Shown piece by piece: positions 11,317 to 53,619 of a DNA stretch of 64,000 nt. The notes under the pieces were generated by a model. It worked only from the letters and a program-made list of their open reading frames with translations, ran no database searches and was not told where the DNA came from. Each line of letters begins with the position of its first letter. Position 1 is the stretch's first letter. The translations under genes were made by a program, and so were the position numbers. The DNA lies in assembly GCA_001513145.1 (NCBI GenBank), contig LFSP01000021.1, forward strand, positions 15,934-79,933, written 5' to 3'. This stretch comes from Clostridia bacterium DTU025 (GTDB lineage: Bacteria > Bacillota > DTU025).

Positions 11317-11967
11317 TTAAGCCTTGACCCAGGAGGTGGAGAACACCAGCGTTTGAAGGATTTGGTCAAGCGTTTTCCGGTGCTCCTCCGGACGGTGCTG
11401 CCTCTCCACCAGGGTGAACATGAGCCCGTGCACCAGGTCGGTGAGGAGCACGGCCCTGGCCTCCTCGTTGGGCAGCTGGCGGTCGATATACACCCCGCGC
11501 ACGGTGAGATCCAGGCCTTGGGCGCCGGCGACCTCTATGCCTCTGGAGTCCACCACCTCGACGCGCTGGCCTGCCGACAGGATGTTGAGGCCAAGGACGT
11601 CCAGAGGGGTGTATGTATCGGCGTCAAGGGGGAACAGGTCCACCGTCATCTCGAATTCCATGCCCTCGGGGCCGTACTTGGCTATGCAGAAACGCCTGAC
11701 GCCCCTCATGTCGTTGCGCTCGTACACCATGTATCCGGCGTCGCCAGGCAGCATGAAGGAGACCAGCCCGCCCATGGATACCCTGAGGTCCGTTCCGGCC
11801 CACCTGGCCTCCGCCAGGGTCAACCGTCCCACCACCACGGTTCTGGGCGAGTCGGTGGTCTGGGCCGAAGCCACTGAAGCCGCACCCGTCATCATCACGA
11901 ACGCGAGCACGGCGACGGCGACGGCAATCAGGTCGCGTCGTCTGGTGGAATGTGCAGCACTGGTCAT
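11317..11967 (-). CDS. Secreted hypothetical protein (signal peptide, no recognisable domain)
   Basis: N-terminal hydrophobic signal segment (LIAVAVAVLAFVMMTGAASVASAQ). Coding-like composition. Divergent from metG. Confidence 0.5.
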   Translation of the reverse strand: MTSAAHSTRRRDLIAVAVAVLAFVMMTGAASVASAQTTDSPRTVVVGRLTLAEARWAGTDLRVSMGGLVSFMLPGDAGYMVYERNDMRGVRRFCIAKYGPEGMEFEMTVDLFPLDADTYTPLDVLGLNILSAGQRVEVVDSRGIEVAGAQGLDLTVRGVYIDRQLPNEEARAVLLTDLVHGLMFTLVERQHRPEEHRKTLDQILQTLVFSTSWVKA

Positions 11968-12028
11968 TCCTTTCACCTCCACATCAAAATACCACGATGG
12001 GCCAGCCCTTTCAACAGTAAGGGATTCC

Positions 12029-12056
12029 TTGACAGTCTAGCGCAGGTAGCTATACA
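12029..12056 (+). promoter_or_regulatory. Candidate sigma-A promoter for metG (TTGACA-16-TATACA)
   Basis: Hexamers ~45 nt upstream of the metG ATG. Confidence 0.4.
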
Positions 12057-12100
12057 CTCGAGTTGACCCGTAGCAGGCGAAATACTGGGGAGGACTTCGC

Positions 12101-14101
12101 ATGAACAGGCAACCTTATTACATAACTACCCCGATCTATTACGTGAACGACCTGCCTCACCTGGGGCACGCTTACACCACCGTGGCGTGCGACGCCATGG
12201 CGAGATACAAGAGGATGCGCGGATACGACGTGTTCTTCCTCACCGGCACCGACGAGCACGGTCAGAAGATCGAGCGTAAGGCGGTGGCTGAGGGTTTCAC
12301 ACCGCAGGCCTACGTGGACAAGATCGCTGAGAGCTTCGTGCAGCTCTGGGAGACGCTGGACATCTCCAACGATGGCTTCATACGCACCACCGACCCTCGA
12401 CACGTCAAAGTGGTGCAAAGGGTGTTCCAGCAGCTCCTGGACAACGACGACATCTATAAAGGAAGCTACGAGGGGTGGTACTGCACCCCGTGCGAAGCCT
12501 TCTTCCCAGAGAGCCAGCTGGTTGACGGAAAGTGCCCGGACTGCGGCCGCGACGTGGAATGGACCCAGGAGGAAGCCTACTTCTTCCGCCTGTCGAAGTA
12601 CGGCAGGCCCCTGCTGGACCACATAGCGACACATCCGGAGTTCATAGAGCCGTCGTCCAGGCGCAATGAGATGGTGCGTTTCATCGAAGGGGGCCTTGAG
12701 GACCTGTGCGTGTCGCGCACCACCTTCACGTGGGGGATCCCGGTCCCGTTTGCGCCAGGCCATGTCGCCTACGTGTGGATAGACGCCCTCACCAACTATC
12801 TCACCGCCATAGGCTACCTGGGCGATGCGGAGATGTTCAACAAGTACTGGCCCGCGGACGTGCACGTCATGGGCAAGGAGATCGTGCGCTTCCACTCGGT
12901 GATCTGGCCGGCTATACTGATGTCCCTGGGCCTTCCCCTGCCGAAGCAGGTGTTCGGTCACGGCTGGTGGACGGTGGAAGGCGAGAAGATGTCCAAGTCC
13001 AAGGGCAACGTCATCAAGCCTGACGAATACGCCGCGGAGTTCGGCGTAGACGCGGTGCGCTACTTCATGCTGCGGGAGGTGCCGTTCGGGCAAGACGGCG
13101 ACTTCTCGAGAATGAACTTCATCTACCGCGTGAACGCGGACCTGGCGAATGACCTGGGGAACCTCTTGAGCAGGGCCACCGCCATGATAATCAAGTTCTG
13201 CGACGGCAAGGTGCCTGAGCCCGGTGTGCAGGAGGAGCCCGACAGGCTCCTTCCGGAGCTTGCAGCGGAGGTGCTGGAGGGCGCCGCTGCCGCCTACGAC
13301 AGGCTGGCGTTCAGCGACGCTTTGGCGGAAGTGTTCCGCCTGGTGGGGGCGGCTAACAAGTACATCGACGACGTTGCTCCCTGGAACCTGGCCAAAACCG
13401 AAGAGGGCAAGAGCAGGCTGGGCACTGTGCTCTACAACATCGCGGAGACTGTGCGGGTGTCGGCGGTGATGCTGGCGCCTGTGCTGACGCGGGGCCCGAG
13501 GCAGCTCTGGTACCAGCTTGGCATAGACGGCTCACCTGAGGAGGCCGGCTGGGAGGCGGCCCGCTGGGGCGGCCTGAAGCCAGGCACGCAGGTTAGGCGT
13601 GGCGACCCGGTGTACCCCAGGGTGGACGCCAAGGCGGAGGCACAGCGGCTCAAGGTAGCGGGCGGTTCGGCCAAGGCTGAAGCGGCTGCCCCGGCCAAAG
13701 TCACGGATGCTGAGCCTGCGGGACAGCCCGGACGGGGCGCGGAGGTTCAAGCGGCGCCGCCGGCCCAGGAGCAGATCACCATCGAGGACTTCGCCCGCAT
13801 AGACCTGCGGGTGGCCACGGTTCTTGAGGCTGAGGTGGTGAAGGGCTCCGACAAGCTGCTGAAGCTGCAGGTTGACCTGGGCTCCGAGCGGCGCCAGATC
13901 GTCGCTGGCATCGCAAAGCACTACGTCCCTGAGGACCTTGTGGGCAAGCAGGTGGTTGTAGTGGCCAACCTCAAGCCGGCGAAGCTGAGAGGCGAGATCT
14001 CCAACGGCATGTTGCTGGCGGCCTCCAGCGCCGGCGAGCCAGTGGTGGTGGCGGTGGTCAGCCCTGAAAAGGACCTGCCCGCCGGGAGCAAGGTGAAATA
14101 G
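12101..14101 (+). CDS. metG: Methionyl-tRNA synthetase with C-terminal tRNA-binding (EMAP/Trbp111-like) domain
   Basis: HLGHAYT (HIGH), KMSKS, Zn knuckle CPDCGRD, and a C-terminal ITIEDFARIDLRVATV...LLKLQVDLG domain. Confidence 0.95.
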   Translation: MNRQPYYITTPIYYVNDLPHLGHAYTTVACDAMARYKRMRGYDVFFLTGTDEHGQKIERKAVAEGFTPQAYVDKIAESFVQLWETLDISNDGFIRTTDPRHVKVVQRVFQQLLDNDDIYKGSYEGWYCTPCEAFFPESQLVDGKCPDCGRDVEWTQEEAYFFRLSKYGRPLLDHIATHPEFIEPSSRRNEMVRFIEGGLEDLCVSRTTFTWGIPVPFAPGHVAYVWIDALTNYLTAIGYLGDAEMFNKYWPADVHVMGKEIVRFHSVIWPAILMSLGLPLPKQVFGHGWWTVEGEKMSKSKGNVIKPDEYAAEFGVDAVRYFMLREVPFGQDGDFSRMNFIYRVNADLANDLGNLLSRATAMIIKFCDGKVPEPGVQEEPDRLLPELAAEVLEGAAAAYDRLAFSDALAEVFRLVGAANKYIDDVAPWNLAKTEEGKSRLGTVLYNIAETVRVSAVMLAPVLTRGPRQLWYQLGIDGSPEEAGWEAARWGGLKPGTQVRRGDPVYPRVDAKAEAQRLKVAGGSAKAEAAAPAKVTDAEPAGQPGRGAEVQAAPPAQEQITIEDFARIDLRVATVLEAEVVKGSDKLLKLQVDLGSERRQIVAGIAKHYVPEDLVGKQVVVVANLKPAKLRGEISNGMLLAASSAGEPVVVAVVSPEKDLPAGSKVK

Positions 14102-14103
14102 CC

Positions 14104-14904
14104 TTGCTCATCGATGCCCACTGCCATCTTGAGGACAGTTCATTCACAGAAGGCGCGAAGGCCGTGGCGGACCGGGCCCGGGCGGCAGGGGTCGTCGCCA
14201 TCATCAACCCCGGCTACGATCTGGAGTCGTCGAAGCTGGCCTTGGTGAACGCAGGGAACATCGAGGGGGTATATGCCCTGGTGGGCATCCACCCTCACGA
14301 CGCGAAGACCGCGGACGCTGCTGCGCTTGAGGAGCTGGAGCGCCTCCTGGGCGAGCCGGGAGTGGTGGGGATAGGCGAGATCGGCCTCGACTACTACAGG
14401 GACTTGTCGCCCCGGAACGACCAGATGCAGGCTTTCCGAGTCCAGATGGACATGGCGCGGAAACACGGCCTTCCCGTGCAGATACACAACAGGGACGCCC
14501 ATCGCGACACCCTTGACGTGATCCGTGAGTACGCCGGTAGCATCCCCGGCATCGTGCTGCATTGTTATTCGGGCAGCGTTGAGATGGCCAGGGAGCTTCT
14601 GAACCTGGGCTGCTTCATATCCATTGCTGGTCCGGTGACGTTCGCCAACGCCAGGAAAGCGGCGGACGTGGCGAGGTACGTGCCTCTCGACAGGATGCTG
14701 GTGGAGACGGACTCTCCATACTTGGCGCCGACACCCCACCGCGGACAGCGGAACGAGCCCGCGTACGTCAGGTACGTGGCTGAGCGGATAGCCGAGATCA
14801 AGGGGGTCAGCTTCGATGAGGTAGCGGAGGCCACTTCGGCGGTGGCCATGAGGATCTTCGGAATATCGCCTGCCGGGACGAGGGAGAATCACCCGGCAGG
14901 GTGA
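14104..14904 (+). CDS. tatD: TatD family metal-dependent DNase
   Basis: MLIDAHCHL... with conserved TatD His/Glu/Asp motifs. Located 2 nt after metG, as in Bacillus yabD. Confidence 0.9.
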   Translation: MLIDAHCHLEDSSFTEGAKAVADRARAAGVVAIINPGYDLESSKLALVNAGNIEGVYALVGIHPHDAKTADAAALEELERLLGEPGVVGIGEIGLDYYRDLSPRNDQMQAFRVQMDMARKHGLPVQIHNRDAHRDTLDVIREYAGSIPGIVLHCYSGSVEMARELLNLGCFISIAGPVTFANARKAADVARYVPLDRMLVETDSPYLAPTPHRGQRNEPAYVRYVAERIAEIKGVSFDEVAEATSAVAMRIFGISPAGTRENHPAG

Positions 14905-14931
14905 CAGGAACAATATGGCATTGAAGTGAAG

Positions 14932-14979
14932 CATCCCTCCCAGGAAACGCGCGCGCTTTCCAATGAACCGGGAGGGATG
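14932..14979 (+). promoter_or_regulatory. 5'-UTR hairpin sequestering the RBS of the downstream secreted-protein gene (CATCCCTCCC ... GGGAGGGATG, 10-bp stem, with a nested GGAAA/TTTCC hairpin)
   Basis: The RBS GGGAGGGA at 14970-14977 is perfectly complementary to 14932-14941. The start ATG is at 14984. Confidence 0.35.
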
Positions 14980-14983
14980 TTTC

Positions 14984-15499
14984 ATGTACCGGACGGCGGG
15001 GCGTTTGGGGTTGAAGGCCCTGCTCATGTGCGTTCTGTGTTTGGCCTTGGCCTTGGCGATGCCTTGCGCGGCTCAGGTCGGAAGCGTGGTGCTGAAGGGC
15101 AGCGTTCTGGGTGCAGTGCGGATAAGCGTGTCGACGACCGAGGTGCAGTGGTCGGATCTCGTCCCAGGCGAGAACTGCATGGAAAACGCGTTTCAGGTCT
15201 TCCTGCACAGCAATACCGGGTTCAATCTCAGCATCCACGCCAGCAAGAGCCATATGACCAACGGCAACGGCGACCATCTGGGAAGCCCGTTGAAGTACCG
15301 TCTTGATGATGACCTGGACTACACTGCTTTGCCGGAGCAGCCTCAGGTGGTCCGTACCTATCAGGACCTTGGCTCGTTGGGCACCCAGCTTACCGTGCAC
15401 CTGAAGCAGGAGGTAAGCTTCGACGACGAGGTAACCTCCGAGCCCAACTCGTGGTACACCACCACCATCTACTTCACCGCTGAAACCACAACTCCATAA
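14984..15499 (+). CDS. Secreted beta-rich protein, possible pilin-like (spore-coat-protein-U/Csu-like) subunit
   Basis: Signal peptide (LKALLMCVLCLALALAMPCAAQ). N-terminal alternating-hydrophobic strand VGSVVLKGSVLGAVRISV and C-terminal SWYTTTIYFTA, resembling donor-strand pilins. The fold assignment is by pattern only. Confidence 0.5.
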   Translation: MYRTAGRLGLKALLMCVLCLALALAMPCAAQVGSVVLKGSVLGAVRISVSTTEVQWSDLVPGENCMENAFQVFLHSNTGFNLSIHASKSHMTNGNGDHLGSPLKYRLDDDLDYTALPEQPQVVRTYQDLGSLGTQLTVHLKQEVSFDDEVTSEPNSWYTTTIYFTAETTTP

Positions 15500-15511
15500 C
15501 AGGTGTCGGGT

Positions 15512-15540
15512 AGGGCAGGGCGTCTTCCCTGCCCTGTGTT
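15512..15540 (+). terminator. Intercistronic hairpin (AGGGCAGGG-CGTCTTC-CCTGCCCT) between the two secreted-protein genes, possible attenuator
   Basis: 8-9 bp GC stem followed by GTGTTGG. Lies 12 nt after the stop of gene 1 and 20 nt before the RBS of gene 2. Confidence 0.35.
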
Positions 15541-15554
15541 GGAGGGAACTATCG

Positions 15555-16448
15555 ATGAGGAAGGGATGGAAGCCGGCGGCGAGGGTGCTGGCGCTTCTGT
15601 GTGCAGTGGCGTTGCTGGCAAGCTCAGGCCACGCCGAAGGCGGCGCTGTGCAGTTCGTATCGAGCCCATCATCAGGCCAGCCCAATGACGTGGAAATAAC
15701 CGTGGCGCCGTCCTTGATCCAGGCGGAGCTCGGCTCCTTCCTGTGGATAGCCCAGACGGAAGTCGGCACCATCACGGTGAGGAACACGGGGAGGCTTCCC
15801 GTGACGGTGGTGGGAGAGTTCCGCGACGCCGTCCAGGACCTGTGGGGCACCGTGGCGGCTGGGCACACCGACATGTGTTCATCTCTGCTCAGGGTGGAGC
15901 CAGCTTCGCTCATGGTCGCGCCGGGAGCAAGCGGATCGATGCGCATCAGGGCGCACCCTTCGGTGGCGCTGGAGAAGAAGTCGGGCGTCGCTGCGGTGCT
16001 TTCCGTAACCGCCAGGCCCGCATCGCGCGGGCTCAGTGCAGGCGTCGGCCTCGGTCCGGGCCTGGGCACAGCCGTGGGGACGCGGGTCTGCGTGCCTGTA
16101 CTGGTGAAGCCTGCGGGGATGCGGAGGACGGGCAGCGGGCAGACATGGCTCGCGGCCAAGGCCATCGGCTACGGGCCTGAAGGCGTGTGGCTGGACGTGA
16201 GGAACGTGGGGCCAGTGTACGCGTGGGTGTCAGGAAAGGTCGAAGTGCGGTGGGCAGAGGAGCGGGCGTCTATCCCCGTACCGCTCAGCCTGGTATTGCC
16301 TGGCTGCACGCGGAGGTTAGTACTTGAGGGATGGGCCGACCTGAGCCTTCCCGAGGGAGAGCACGAGGTCGTGGTCCGTCTGCAGGGAGAACAGCCCACG
16401 ACCTTCGCGCTGAACTTCGCTACAGAGGCATCTCCTGGCCGGCCTTGA
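15555..16448 (+). CDS. Secreted protein, probable Ig-like/beta-sandwich partner of the upstream protein (chaperone-like or adhesin tip?)
   Basis: Signal peptide (VLALLCAVALLASSGHAEG). RBS GGAGGGAA. No sortase or lipobox motif. Function not assignable from sequence. Confidence 0.5.
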   Translation: MRKGWKPAARVLALLCAVALLASSGHAEGGAVQFVSSPSSGQPNDVEITVAPSLIQAELGSFLWIAQTEVGTITVRNTGRLPVTVVGEFRDAVQDLWGTVAAGHTDMCSSLLRVEPASLMVAPGASGSMRIRAHPSVALEKKSGVAAVLSVTARPASRGLSAGVGLGPGLGTAVGTRVCVPVLVKPAGMRRTGSGQTWLAAKAIGYGPEGVWLDVRNVGPVYAWVSGKVEVRWAEERASIPVPLSLVLPGCTRRLVLEGWADLSLPEGEHEVVVRLQGEQPTTFALNFATEASPGRP

Positions 16449-17427
16449 AGGACCGCAGGGTCTTCTTTGAAAGGTCGTGCGTGGTGCGGATGCGCCTTAC
16501 CGTGCCCGTTCGCGCCCGCATTACTATCGAGTCGGTCTCTGCGCGCTGGCCGTGGAACCTGACACCTTTCAGCATGTCACCGTCGGTGATGCCCGTGGCG
16601 CAGAAGACTATGTTGTTCCCTTTGGCCAGGTCCTCAGAGCAGAAAACCTGCGACAGGCGCTCGAAGCCTGCCGCCATGGCCCTGGCCTCGTCGTCTGCGT
16701 CGCGAACCCACATCTGCGTCTGTATCTCGCCGCCCAGGCACTTGAGGGCTGCCGCCGACAGCACCGCTTCCGGAGCCCCTCCGATGCCCATGAGCAGGTC
16801 CACGCCGGTGTCTGGCAGTGCGGTGGAGATGGCGGCTGACACGTCTCCGTCCTGGATGAGCTTGATCCTGGCCCCGGCCTCGCGCACCTCCCTGATGAGC
16901 TCCTCGTGGCGGGGCCGGTTGAGGATGACGACGGTAAGGTCCTTGACCTTCTTGCCCATGGCGGCTGCGACGACGCGAAGGTTCTCGCGGGTTGGGGCGT
17001 TTATGTCTATGTAGTCGCGGGCCTGCGGGCCCACAGCCAGCTTGCGCATGTAAAACGTGGGAACGGGCATCAGCGACTGCCGCCCCGCCACCACGATAAC
17101 GGAGATCGCGTTGGGAAGCCCATTTGCCACTAGCCTTGTGCCTTCCACGGGGTCCACAGCAATGTCAACCTCATCCTTGGTGAGGCAAGTGCCGACGCGC
17201 TCGCCATTGTACAGCATGGGGGCTCGATCCTTCTCGCCTTCCCCGATGACTACTGTGCCGTTGATGTTCACGAGGGACAACATCCCGCGCATCCCATCAA
17301 CGGCAGCCTCATCCACCAGCTCGGTGTCTCCCATGCCCATGCACCTGGCCGCAAGCAGCGATGCGGTTTCGGTTACCCGGACCAGCTCCAGCATTATCTC
17401 GCGTTCTCTGTCTTCCACTGCACTCAT
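16420..17427 (-). CDS. glpX: Fructose-1,6-bisphosphatase class II
   Basis: MSAVEDREREIMLELVRVTE...GEGEKDRAPMLY...DPVEGT...GIGGAPEAV match the GlpX family. Start trimmed to the internal ATG. Confidence 0.85.
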   Translation of the reverse strand: MSAVEDREREIMLELVRVTETASLLAARCMGMGDTELVDEAAVDGMRGMLSLVNINGTVVIGEGEKDRAPMLYNGERVGTCLTKDEVDIAVDPVEGTRLVANGLPNAISVIVVAGRQSLMPVPTFYMRKLAVGPQARDYIDINAPTRENLRVVAAAMGKKVKDLTVVILNRPRHEELIREVREAGARIKLIQDGDVSAAISTALPDTGVDLLMGIGGAPEAVLSAAALKCLGGEIQTQMWVRDADDEARAMAAGFERLSQVFCSEDLAKGNNIVFCATGITDGDMLKGVRFHGQRAETDSIVMRARTGTVRRIRTTHDLSKKTLRSFKAGQEMPL

Positions 17428-17631
17428 GCAGCTCCCACTCCCTCCGGACGTTAGGCTAGTTCGAATGTATGCGCTAGTTAAGCTTTGGATTACGCGTGGG
17501 AGTAAACCAGCTGGTTCCAGCGCCAATTATACCATACGGCCGGAGCGGGCAGCGAAAGCGCCGACGCGCAGCGTCCGTTTCGCTCCTTCTTGCCCTCTGA
17601 CTTGGGGCGCGTCCGTGCTTGAGACTGCTAT

Positions 17632-17657
17632 TTGTTTCTACAAATTGTTTCTACAAA
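17632..17657 (+). promoter_or_regulatory. Perfect tandem direct repeat 2 x TTGTTTCTACAAA upstream of the DUF3798-ABC operon (candidate operator)
   Basis: A 13-nt unit repeated head-to-tail; each unit is a quasi-palindrome TTGT-N5-ACAA. Located ~100 nt upstream of the start at 17758. Confidence 0.3.
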
Positions 17658-17757
17658 GCGGCGTGCAGGAATGTGGTGACTTGTGGAGAAATGAACTCAA
17701 ACTCACTGTAGGCGCATGGACAGTGCGCCTAAGAACTGTTTAGGAGAGGTGAAACGT

Positions 17758-23620: not shown

Positions 23621-24463
23621 TTGAAGCCCGCAAGGGTGTCGGAGGAGCCGGGCCAACGAAGGAGAGCCGTTCTGTGGGGCGTCGCCATCTTCTGTGTGGT
23701 CGTGGCCTCTTGCGTTATGCTGGATCTCAAGTCTCGGCAGGTGATGGCGGCGACGGCCGCAGCCACCGCTGTCGCTGAGGGCGCGGTAGCTTTCGTGCCG
23801 CGGACAAGCTATATCAATAAAGTGTTTCACAGCATTGGGATGAACCTCGAGGCAGCTCCGACAGGTCCTTCGCGGGCCTCTTCGGGCTGGGTCGTGGAGA
23901 GGTCCATCGTCAAGCGACGGGTGCCCCTTCCTGCGCCCACTCAGCGTGTGAACGACCCCACGCTTGACAAGGGGCAGGTCCGCGTGCTGAAGCAGGGCGC
24001 CGACGGAGCGAAGGAGCAGATGGTTCTCATCACCAGGGACCAGGCGGGCAACCGCACCGAGACGGTGATGCGAGAGTGGGTCTCGGTGGAGCCGAAGCCC
24101 ACCATCATGGCCGTCGGCTCCAGAGAGCCCCTGAGGGTGCTGGTGACCAGCCGCGGGACCTTCACGTACCGCAAGGTGCTTGACATGGTCGCAACGGCTT
24201 ACGAGCCTGGACCGGTGTCGTGCGGCGAGCACGCCGACGGCTACACCGCCATAGGCCTCAAGGCGGAGCCGGGCATCGTGGCGGTGGATCCCAGGGTGAT
24301 CCCGCTGCGGACGAAGCTGTACGTGGAGGGTTACGGCCCTGCGATCGCCGGTGACGTGGGAGGCGCCATCAAGGGCAACAGGATCGACCTGCTCTTCAGG
24401 ACCGTCGAGGAGTGCATCCAGTACGGGCGCCGGCGGGTCAAAGTATATATCCTTGAAGACTAG
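23621..24463 (+). CDS. yabE: YabE-like cell-wall protein (membrane anchor + G5 domain + 3D domain)
   Basis: TM segment LWGVAIFCVVVASCVMLDL, G5-like NDPTLDKGQVRVLKQGADGAKE, and C-terminal 3D domain AVDPRVIPLRTKLYVEGYGPAIAGDVGGAIKGNRIDL. Position after tatD matches Bacillus. Confidence 0.75.
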   Translation: MKPARVSEEPGQRRRAVLWGVAIFCVVVASCVMLDLKSRQVMAATAAATAVAEGAVAFVPRTSYINKVFHSIGMNLEAAPTGPSRASSGWVVERSIVKRRVPLPAPTQRVNDPTLDKGQVRVLKQGADGAKEQMVLITRDQAGNRTETVMREWVSVEPKPTIMAVGSREPLRVLVTSRGTFTYRKVLDMVATAYEPGPVSCGEHADGYTAIGLKAEPGIVAVDPRVIPLRTKLYVEGYGPAIAGDVGGAIKGNRIDLLFRTVEECIQYGRRRVKVYILED

Positions 24464-43624: not shown

Positions 43625-43849
43625 CGTGTCCCCGCTTTCCTGTTTTCCAGTGATTCCCGTACAACGCCGAGCCGCTCTCTTCAGTATTCCCAGCGCGCCG
43701 GCATCGGTTGCGGCGATGGAGCGGAAGGAGTTGCCGCTCTCGGGTAGAATACTCATCCTGTTCAGTACCATTGGGAAGCAGAATGGGAGTTCATGTCGCT
43801 CTCCCGAGCTTCTCGAAAAATGTAGACCACAATGAGGAGGTAATGTGGA

Positions 43850-45460
43850 ATGCGCAGATTTGCGGCGATACTGGCCAGCGCGCTAGTGGTGATGATGCTG
43901 GCTACCACCGGCATAGTCGCCTAGGAGAGGCTCGCCCGCAACCAGAGGCTGAGCTACAACGTGGGTGCGGAGCCGGCAACCCTTGACCCCGCACTGTCCA
44001 CTGGTGTCCCGGAGGCCATCGTTGAGCTGAGCTGCTTCGAGGGTCTCACCAGGATGGACGCCAACAACATCCCCCAGCCTGCGATCGCAGAGAGCTGGAC
44101 CATCAGCGATGATGGGCTTGTGTACACTTTCAAGCTTCGCCAGGCTAAGTGGAACAATGGCGAACCTGTGACCGCTCATGACTTCGAGTGGTCGTGGAAG
44201 CGCGCTCTCGACCCCGAGACCGCTGCGGAGTACGCGTACCAGCTGTACTACATCAAGAACGGTGAAGCTTACAACACCGGAGCGATCACCGATCCCGACC
44301 TCGTAGGGGTCAAGGCCCTTGACGATTACACTCTCCAGGTGACGCTGGAACAGCCCACCACCTATTTCCTGCAGCTGTGCGCGTTCCCGACCCTCATGCC
44401 GGTCTACCGCAAGGTCGTGGAGGCCGACCCTGAGGCCTGGTTCTACAACGTCAACAACTACATCGGCAACGGCCCGTTCAAGATCGTGCGTTGGGAGCAC
44501 AACTCCAAGATCGATCTCGTGCCCAACGAGCATTACTGGAACAGGGACGCCATCAAGCTCACGAACCTCACCTTCTACCTCATCGAGGATACCCAGACCG
44601 CTCTGTCGATGTTCGATACGGGCGAGCTCGACATGTTCGATTCGCCGCCTGCCACCGAGATCGAGGGCCTGAAGCAGCGCGGCGTGCTCTTAATCAACGA
44701 CTACCTCGGCACCTACTACTACATGTTCAACGTCACCGCCGAGCCCCTCGATGACGTGCGCGTGCGCAAGGCGCTGACGATGGCCATCGACCGCCAGGAG
44801 CTCATCGACCGCGTGGTCCGCGGCGGCCAGCTGCCTGCCTACGCCTATGTGCCGTTCGGAATGCCGGGCGGAACCGTTGGCAGCGACTTCCGTGAGGAGG
44901 GCGGCGACCTCTACAAGGAGGACTTGGAGGAGGCCAAGAAGCTTCTGGCTGAGGCCGGCTACCCCGACGGCAAAGGCTTCCCGACCCTGGCGATCCTCTA
45001 CAACACCAGCGAGAACCACAAGAAGATCGCCGAAGCCATCCAGGAGATGTGGAAGAAGAACCTGGGCATCGACGTCAGGCTGACGAACCAGGAGTGGCAG
45101 GTCTACCTCGACTCCCGTGACGCCCTGGATTACCAGGTGGCGCGCGCGGGCTGGATCGGCGACTACGTGGATCCCATGACGTTCCTGGATATGTGGATGA
45201 CTGACAGCGGCAATAACGACTCCGGCTGGGGCAACCCCAGGTTCGACGAGCTCATCGTTGCCGCTCGCAGCAACATGGACCCCGCCGCACGCGCCAAGCA
45301 GCTGCATGAGGCGGAGAAGATCCTGATCGCCGACGAGATGGTGGTCATGCCGATCTACTTCTACACCAACCTGAACGTGGTCCAGCCGTGGGTGCGTGGC
45401 GTTGAGTTCTCGCCGCTCGGCTTCATCAACTTCGTCAACGCCTACGTGCTCGAGAGATAA
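43850..45460 (+). pseudogene. oppA: Oligopeptide ABC transporter substrate-binding protein OppA, interrupted by an in-frame TAG between the signal peptide and the mature domain
   Basis: ATG at 43850 with a GAGGAGG RBS encodes MRRFAAILASALVVMMLATTGIVA, then a TAG at ~43922-43924. The same frame continues ERLARNQRLSYNVGAEPATLDPAL..., the conserved OppA mature N-terminus. The ORF track restarts at the GTG at 43961. Confidence 0.5.
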
Positions 45461-53195: not shown

Positions 53196-53242
53196 CCAGC
53201 AACTTACATGCGTCCTCGACGCAGCAACCCCCCTGCGTTCCA

Positions 53243-53267
53243 GAGGATTTTCCTTTTCAGCGTGGAA
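53243..53267 (+). promoter_or_regulatory. Sigma-H-type promoter upstream of spoVG (AGAGGATTT -N- GTGGAATAG)
   Basis: Matches RnAGGAwWW -11/12- RnnGAATww, with 17 nt between AGGA and GAAT. B. subtilis spoVG is the classic sigma-H gene. Confidence 0.5.
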
Positions 53268-53316
53268 TAGGTAATCCACACATACCAGCATATTCGCGCT
53301 GAAGGGTGGCTACCAG

Positions 53317-53619
53317 TTGATAGTCACGAACGTGAAGGTTCGCGCAGTGGACGTGTCCGGAAGGATGAAAGCGCTGGCCACCATCACCCTTGACGGCGCC
53401 TTCGTCGTTCACGATCTCAGGGTGATCCAAGGAGATAAAGGGCTGTTCGTCGCCATGCCCAGCAGGCGGGGCGCCGACGGCAAGTTCCGCGACGTGGCCC
53501 ACCCCATCACTCAGGAACTCAGGGACACGATCGAGGCAGCGGTTCTCCAGGCGTACACGGCTGAACACGAGCACGAGCAGCAGCACGAGCAGCAGCACGA
53601 GCATCAGCAGGGCGCTTAA
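53317..53619 (+). CDS. spoVG: Septation/sporulation protein SpoVG
   Basis: [39 protein letters not shown]... is near-identical to SpoVG. C-terminal HEQQ repeat. Confidence 0.92.

Follow-up and report, generated by a model that had tools for sequence, protein, structure and literature searches.

What is a pair of secreted proteins doing behind a run of housekeeping genes, and how might such a pair be expressed there? In the window analyzed here, a stretch of 64,000 nucleotides from Clostridia bacterium DTU025, metG (12101-14101) and tatD (14104-14904) are followed on the plus strand by gene 1 (14984-15499, 171 aa) and gene 2 (15555-16448, 297 aa), both encoding secreted proteins. Downstream, glpX lies on the minus strand (16420-17526), convergent with gene 2, and the two 3' ends overlap by 29 nt (16420-16448), an arrangement that recurs in the orthologous loci. 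An earlier note on this DNA had described two adjacent genes for signal-peptide proteins devoid of recognizable enzymatic motifs, and both points hold: the two ORFs are present, a direct reading of each N terminus reveals a basic n-region, a hydrophobic core and an AxA-like site, and no significant match to Pfam or NCBIfam was found for gene 1, gene 2 or 35 relatives of gene 1.

We read the locus as a lineage-specific bicistronic operon that would provide, by beta-strand complementation, a secreted two-protein surface module whose expression is controlled as proposed below, and we give this reading an even chance of being right. Gene 1 would supply a small acidic beta-sandwich subunit whose N terminus is a free strand in which hydrophobic residues alternate. 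The PapD-like product of gene 2, with its two Ig domains, would bind and stabilize this subunit after Sec export through a conserved G1-like strand, V-x-V-x-V-L-V-K-P, situated behind a flexible loop. The complex might then be kept on the wall, or the subunits might be handed on to join head to tail; physical binding and polymerization of the two products are steps that we infer.

A conserved gene pair in an endospore former

The order of the surrounding genes is Bacillus-like, with tmk-holB-yaaT-...-rsmI-abrB-metG-tatD on one side of the pair and, further downstream, yabE-like-ksgA-yabG, spoVG-glmU-prs and mfd. The order in Bacillus is metS-yabD-yabE, and the pair is not known from the tatD-yabE junction there. 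In the window, by comparison, tatD and the yabE-like G5+3D gene (23621-24463) are separated by gene 1, gene 2, glpX and an ABC transporter. Because the window encodes YabG as well as a SipL/SpoVID-like protein, its host is an endospore-forming member of the Bacillota, and public copies of both proteins are labeled as coming from Bacillota or Clostridia MAGs. Horizontal acquisition of the pair was considered and rejected, as its GC content of 58-69% runs on continuously into the flanking DNA.

The conservation of the pair is well established. The order metG-tatD-gene 1-gene 2-glpX occurs in at least five full-length lineages, and the linkage of tatD to gene 1 extends to eight, down to about 25% protein identity. 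Five relatives of gene 2 were found at 48-96% identity, and every contig with such a relative also encodes an orthologue of gene 1, 171 aa long and 37-44% identical, in the same gene order. A word-indexed search with gene 1 returned near-identical copies only, and a profile search run exhaustively over 1.84 billion representatives yielded 39 matches, of which about 30 are full-length proteins of 150-190 aa. The closer of these lie downstream of tatD (lineages L013, L014, L016 and L019), in L013 and L014 with a gene 2 homologue directly after gene 1. In a different genomic context, that of L020, a gene 1-like protein is followed by a signal-peptide protein with the N-terminal motif of gene 2, so the pairing must be older than its location behind tatD. 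The retention of the pair after metG-tatD and its reappearance in L020 bear out the suggestion that the two genes form a conserved secreted module, and all syntenic loci contain one gene 1 and one gene 2. Its known carriers are few, uncultured spore-forming Bacillota: a gene 2 relative is present in 1 of 185,579 species-representative genomes (UBA1393), a metagenome scan added two short contigs, and several of the distant gene 1 relatives sit on contigs too short for their context to be informative. Three long proteins among the profile matches (P0031, P0036 and P0048), which are cadherin-like, TamB or similar and match only in part, were treated as spurious.

Folds of the two proteins and the WxL/WxLIP comparison

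The mature gene 2 product has a predicted mass of about 28 kDa and a pI of 7.9. Its AF2 model consists of two beta-sandwich domains, Ig-like and spanning about residues 46-155 and 176-290, which together form a cleft, the arrangement that defines the PapD fold. The highest-ranking structural matches are CsuC (12.1), CupB2 (11.9), SafB (11.4) and FimC (11.3), with YadV, EcpB, CfaA, PapD and FaeE further down; all of them are chaperones of chaperone-usher systems, and single-domain MSP/ASH proteins also appear among the matches. The Ig-like character ascribed to gene 2 earlier thus stands, and its top match is the chaperone of the very Csu system that had been named for gene 1. In line with the model, an identical copy of gene 2 carries the JGI label 'P pilus assembly chaperone PapD'.

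On the sequence level the relationship is more distant. Pfam PapD_N and PapD_C give no gene 2 match even at E <= 10, which speaks against PapD family membership by sequence, and DUF916 and DUF3324 are not matched in Pfam either; choice-of-anchor D (E 0.008) and the ASH domain appear below threshold. When gene 2 was compared by hhalign, profile to profile, with a set of six chaperones from E. coli K-12, 115 collinear columns aligned at a probability of 26% (P 7e-4), compared with about 1% and P 0.04-0.09 in two cross-controls. The alignment places VAAVLSVTARP of gene 2 on the chaperone F1 strand, its Gly-rich loop on the F1-G1 loop, RVxVxVLVKP on the G1 strand together with the (K/R)P hinge, and VRNxGPxYAW on the N-x-x-P-x-Y motif (NPTPYY) of domain 2; in gene 2 itself, a Gly/Ala-rich loop leads into the conserved strand V-x-V-x-V-L-V-K-P. 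Two conserved chaperone residues, by which the subunit is anchored at its C terminus, have no counterpart in this alignment: Lys112 faces P181, a Thr in the orthologues, and gene 2 does not align in the Arg8 region (TRxIY). The invariant R177 of gene 2 pairs with the Arg of SRIK instead of K112. The gene 2 sequence has no C-terminal transmembrane helix, and we rejected the possibility of a lipoprotein: the signal peptide does contain a Cys, but neither in the window nor in most orthologues does this residue sit in a lipobox.

Gene 1, whose ATG lies 7 nt after GGGAGGG, gives a mature product of about 141 aa and 15.5 kDa with a pI of 4.6. The first approximately 11 mature residues are alternating hydrophobics, and the C-terminal strand YTTTIxFTA is conserved. 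The model is a beta-sandwich in which the N-terminal strand (residues 31-41) is unmodeled. Foldseek returned no match at E <= 0.001; the best target-normalized TM-score, 0.49, belongs to CsuA/B (E 0.023, probability 0.98), a weak fold match. Against a profile of fourteen E. coli K-12 pilins, hhalign gives 72% probability and P 3.4e-5 over only 32 N-terminal columns, in which the mature N terminus aligns with the N-terminal extension and A strand of FimA-type pilins. SCPU, WxL, TasA, DUF4402 and Fimbrial domains are absent or score above E 0.1 in gene 1, gene 2 and the 35 gene 1 relatives; the SCPU domain (PF05229) in particular is matched neither by gene 1 at E <= 10 nor by any of the relatives at E <= 1, and a profile search of PDB sequences gave nothing for gene 2 and noise for gene 1. 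The earlier assignment of gene 1 to donor-strand-exchange pilins of the SCPU/Csu type therefore has to be split. Membership of the SCPU family by sequence falls away. A role as a donor-strand pilin is plausible, if tentatively so: the CsuA/B match and the FimA-like N terminus hint at it, against which stand the lack of a Foldseek match at E <= 0.001 and the moderate confidence of the model, as both gene 1 and gene 2 were predicted at pLDDT 62 from five-sequence alignments.

But does the pair have to be a pilus system at all? The WxL/WxLIP systems of Gram-positive bacteria, absent from the earlier interpretation, are an equally close known analogue. In a complex of this type, gene 1 would resemble the small WxL proteins in being a surface protein made up of its domain only, and gene 2, soluble and WxLIP-like, would insert a strand into it and hold it on the peptidoglycan; no fibre would be formed. 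The clusters of Enterococcus, Listeria and Lactiplantibacillus share with the present locus their Bacillota hosts (here a spore former, with YabG and SipL) and a small domain-only secreted protein adjoining a partner with two Ig domains, and strand insertion from DUF916 into WxL has been predicted for them (PMC10599100). The distant relatives of gene 1 strengthen the likeness. At the distant locus L026, a gene 1-like small protein lies beside a protein of 337 aa that carries a C-terminal hydrophobic segment in addition to two Ig-like regions; the same locus encodes a protein of 890 aa, which has an ASH/WxLIP_PGBD-like domain (E 0.05) at its N terminus as well as transmembrane segments and ends in a domain resembling gene 1 (hhalign 65%, P 6e-5). 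This architecture, with the gene 1 relative as C-terminal domain of a large surface protein, follows the logic of a WxL/WxLIP cluster, and many distant relatives have SN..W-x-L at the position of the first WxL motif. The signature features of these systems are nonetheless missing from the pair itself: none of the 35 gene 1 family members matches Pfam WxL (PF13731), the places of the W-x-L motifs are taken in gene 1 by FNL and IYF, gene 2 has neither a DUF916 or DUF3324 match nor a membrane anchor at its C terminus, and there is a single copy of gene 1 where the definition of a WxL cluster requires two WxL proteins (PMC10599100). Taking both sides together, we regard a non-polymerizing wall complex of this kind as possible, though on the unlikely side.

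The module that we favor, built by strand complementation, thus stands near chaperone-usher pairs in its fold and near WxL/WxLIP clusters in its host and cluster logic, and belongs to neither by sequence. Going by the predictions, the pair is probably related to known pairs for surface-protein assembly, as a new form that has no usher.

A conserved leader helix and a candidate sigma-H promoter

How would such a module be expressed behind metG and tatD? The leader of gene 1 folds into a helix of 16 bp whose 5', anti-Shine-Dalgarno (anti-SD) arm, GTGAAGCATCCCTCCC at 14926-14941, pairs with the 3' arm GGGAGGGATGTTTCAT at 14970-14985, both on the plus strand. The 3' arm runs from the SD (14970-14977) through the spacer to the second base of the start codon, so the helix covers the SD and part of the AUG. 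Its loop contains an inner hairpin (14943-14961, plus strand) with two compensatory pairs, and in most lineages an outer helix is added, in which a conserved ATATGG pairs with the start-codon region. The fold has a minimum free energy of -33.3 kcal/mol (z -3.31), and none of 200 shuffles was as stable. The helix recurs in eight of eight lineages, at protein identities that go down to about 25%. As L013 and L016 were misregistered in their 3' arms when whole leaders were aligned with MAFFT, covariation was counted on an alignment of the arms only, anchored on the SD: 90% of the cells in 14 pairs are paired, compared with 53-68% in slid controls, and four pairs show compensatory changes; the observed score was attained in 1 of 500 shuffles. 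The leader helix is an RBS-sequestering, anti-SD element conserved with compensatory changes. The hairpin proposed earlier, in which CATCCCTCCC at 14932-14941 pairs with GGGAGGGATG at 14970-14979, is the core of this helix; its sequestering character is upheld by the z-score and the covariation, and its length is to be revised from 10 to 16 bp.

Overlapping the start of the 5' arm is the -10-like element of a sigma-H-type promoter-like motif (14904-14933, plus strand; ACAGGAACA, a 12-nt spacer and AGTGAAGCA); a sigma-70 promoter scan found none. The sigma-H consensus in the B. subtilis literature reads RNAGGAWWW-N11-12-RNNGAATWW, to which the motif conforms at 12 of 15 positions in the window and at 12-14 in the orthologues. 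spoVG, a classic sigma-H target, serves as an internal control: 49 nt upstream of it lies the best match to the consensus in the 64-kb window, with 14 of 15 positions. Matches of 12 of 15 arise by chance about 0.24 times per kb and strand, so the motif of the window is not significant in isolation, and it is its conservation at a fixed position that argues for a promoter. AGGAA is kept upstream of the helix in all eight lineages and is followed further on by GAAT, except for GAAG in the window and GAAA in L016. Counted from the A of AGGA, GAAT lies 21-22 nt away in eight of eight lineages, even where the arm sequences differ, a spacing that matches the mapped SigH promoters of C. difficile (PMC7438776). 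We infer from these sequence features that the tatD-gene 1 spacer may contain a functional sigma-H-type promoter. Mapped SigH start sites lie about 8-10 nt past GAAT (PMC7438776); a transcript from this promoter would therefore start at the 3' end of the anti-SD arm.

Such a promoter would turn on expression of the operon as the cells pass into stationary phase or sporulation. Its transcripts would lack the anti-SD arm and be translated, whereas read-through transcripts from metG-tatD would carry the arm, have their SD and AUG occluded and remain silent. We prefer this insulation model, which would also account for the selection on RNA pairing upstream of the putative start. The closest parallel is the fold-back inhibition by which, as Davis, Simons and Kleckner reportedly described in 1985, the transposase genes of IS10 and IS50 are shielded from outside transcription: there, too, sequence 5' of the gene's own start pairs with the RBS, and only read-through transcripts are silent. 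What differs here is that a chromosomal gene behind housekeeping genes would be protected and that the candidate promoter is of the sigma-H type.

An alternative is that the helix acts on every transcript as a regulated switch, either an RNA thermometer or the target of a trans factor, and that the conservation of AGGAA and GAAT reflects RNA pairing or a protein-binding site instead of a promoter. Covariation implies an RNA with its 5' arm under selection, as a switch would demand, yet a helix of -33 kcal/mol with 16 bp and a GC-rich core is far more stable than RNA thermometers, which melt at 37-42 C, and positions 14000-17000 contain no covariance-model match to Rfam 15 at E <= 1. The pairing of ATATGG in the supposed promoter spacer, unexpected for a pure spacer, and the off-consensus GAAG of the window's -10 element also speak for a switch; the AGGA-to-GAAT spacing, kept despite changed arm sequences, and the presence of the same motif class at spoVG in the same window speak for a promoter. 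On balance, we consider a switch unlikely and retain insulation from read-through as the working model. Against a promoter, the conservation of GGAAT could reflect pairing alone.

Gene order, the intercistronic hairpin and wider context

A second structure separates the two cistrons (15492-15544, plus strand), with a core GC hairpin at 15513-15534 (GGGCAGGG/CCCTGCCC). In its outer stem, present in the window and in L001, CUCCA from the last sense codons of gene 1 pairs with a UGGAG that overlaps the SD of gene 2. For the 76-nt intercistronic region the folding energy is -30.3 kcal/mol (z -2.2), a value matched by 5 of 200 shuffles, and GC-rich hairpins of unrelated sequence occupy the same position in five of six lineages checked. 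None of these hairpins is followed by a U-tract; in the window UGUGUUGG comes next, and the hairpin there went unflagged in the terminator scan. Of the intercistronic attenuator described earlier, the positionally conserved GC hairpin thus remains, and the attenuator role is unproven for want of a U-tract. The hairpin could be a partial terminator, a 3'-end stabilizer or a coupling element, and would favor production of more subunit than partner.

The order of subunit, hairpin and chaperone is typical of pilus operons, which brings up a further reading, a true archaic (Csu/SCPU) chaperone-usher pilus in a diderm member of the Bacillota whose usher and tip subunits would be encoded at other genomic loci. 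We consider it very unlikely: CsuA/B as best gene 1 target by TM-score, the FimA-like N terminus and the gene order are in its favor, but no usher was found among the scanned ORFs of the window or in any syntenic locus, where it would be expected to be adjacent, as chaperone-usher operons normally keep it, and the case is further weakened by the lack of SCPU or PapD sequence matches, by the absence from gene 1 of the cysteines conserved in SCPU proteins and by the lack of any outer-membrane marker in 64 kb. The likeness to chaperone-usher pili such as the Csu system of Acinetobacter baumannii (CsuA/B, CsuC) is one of parts: a small secreted beta-sandwich subunit with a predicted N-terminal alternating-hydrophobic strand, a partner with two Ig domains whose best structural matches include CsuC, CupB2, SafB, FimC and PapD, and a stem-loop between their genes. 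The differences are the missing usher nearby, the missing PapD and SCPU matches, the lack of a conserved K112 equivalent, a single subunit gene with no tip adhesin, and a spore-forming Bacillota host. TasA-type fibres and the archaeal TasA-like donor-strand fibres (AbpA bundling pili, Saci_0406 threads, TLP) differ in having no PapD-like partner, and the present locus has neither a Peptidase_M73/TasA match nor a SipW- or TapA-like neighbor.

Why would a strand-complementation module in a spore former matter? PapD-type chaperones are textbook parts of Gram-negative pilus assembly, and their handling of subunits is a drug target. If our reading is true, an usher-less pair in spore-forming Bacillota would mean that assembly by strand complementation exists outside the chaperone-usher pathway, and, taken together with the WxL-like clusters of the distant relatives, would offer a testable evolutionary link between chaperone-usher and WxL/WxLIP systems. 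The most far-reaching form of this idea is an usher-independent donor-strand assembly in endospore-forming Bacillota, in which a PapD-like chaperone, as sporulation begins, would pass a pilin-like subunit on into fibres or into a surface layer; it would be an evolutionary bridge between chaperone-usher pili and WxL/WxLIP clusters, gated by a promoter that lies within the module's own anti-SD helix. As a whole, we think this improbable. The leader, if it works as proposed, would be a clean chromosomal case of read-through protection by a promoter inside an anti-SD helix, a possibility worth recalling when genes wedged into housekeeping operons are annotated.

The boundary to the housekeeping genes carries one more structure. 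Within the final codons of tatD, a hairpin can be read from the sequence at 14870-14899 on the plus strand (CTGCCGGG / CCCGGCAG), which is possibly a partial terminator or processing site that would uncouple gene 1 from metG-tatD, and the orthologous loci have counterparts at the same site.

Motifs resembling the sigma-H consensus

The best match to the sigma-H consensus of B. subtilis in the entire window, at 14 of 15 positions, lies on the forward strand at 53242-53270 (AGAGGATTT, an 11-nt spacer and GTGGAATAG), 49 nt ahead of spoVG (53317-53619), whose product is confirmed as SpoVG by Pfam. This arrangement suggests that a Bacillus-like sigma-H motif is used by the host lineage. Another sigma-H-like motif on the same strand (17664-17692; GCAGGAATG, an 11-nt spacer and GGAGAAATG) precedes the operon encoding a DUF3798 binding protein and an ABC transporter, and AGGA-N17/18-GAAK matches occur at the equivalent place in orthologous loci of relatives (L001, position 6635; L002, 3341; L003, 2206; L009, 10617; L014, 10607). 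Also on the forward strand, at about 17630-17657 between glpX and the DUF3798 gene, two copies of TTGTTTCTACAAA form a tandem direct repeat, which may be a binding site for a regulator. A second strong sigma-H-like match (43724-43752, forward strand; 13 of 15 positions) contains an exact AGGA-N17-GAAT; about 210 nt further downstream lies an Opp-like SBP_bac_5 gene (43961-45460).

Boundaries of gene 2

At the junction of the two secreted-protein genes, CUCCA (15492-15496), formed by the final sense codons of gene 1 and directly followed by its UAA stop, pairs with UGGAG (15540-15544), which overlaps the Shine-Dalgarno (SD) sequence of gene 2; therefore, ribosomes terminating on gene 1 could unmask gene 2. 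A similar pairing is found in L001, and the codon for the C-terminal Pro of gene 1 shows no variation. At its other end, gene 2 converges with glpX, sharing 29 nt (16420-16448), an overlap retained across all orthologous loci. The conservation of the C-terminal ASPxRP of gene 2 may thus reflect a dual-coding constraint.

A WxL-cluster-like locus and an ORF near metG

In the distant locus L026, an 890-aa protein (11891-14563, reverse strand) has an ASH/WxLIP_PGBD-like Ig domain at its N-terminus and a gene 1-like domain at its C-terminus, as well as transmembrane segments. Next to it are encoded a small protein resembling gene 1 and a 337-aa Ig-like protein whose C-terminal end carries a hydrophobic segment. 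The composition of the locus is reminiscent of Gram-positive WxL surface clusters, and no Pfam WxL match occurs in it. Within the window, a 221-aa ORF without any Pfam match (11317-11982, reverse strand) lies between an abrB-like gene and metG, and a similar unannotated gene of 220-236 aa occupies the equivalent place in L001, L009-L012 and L014.
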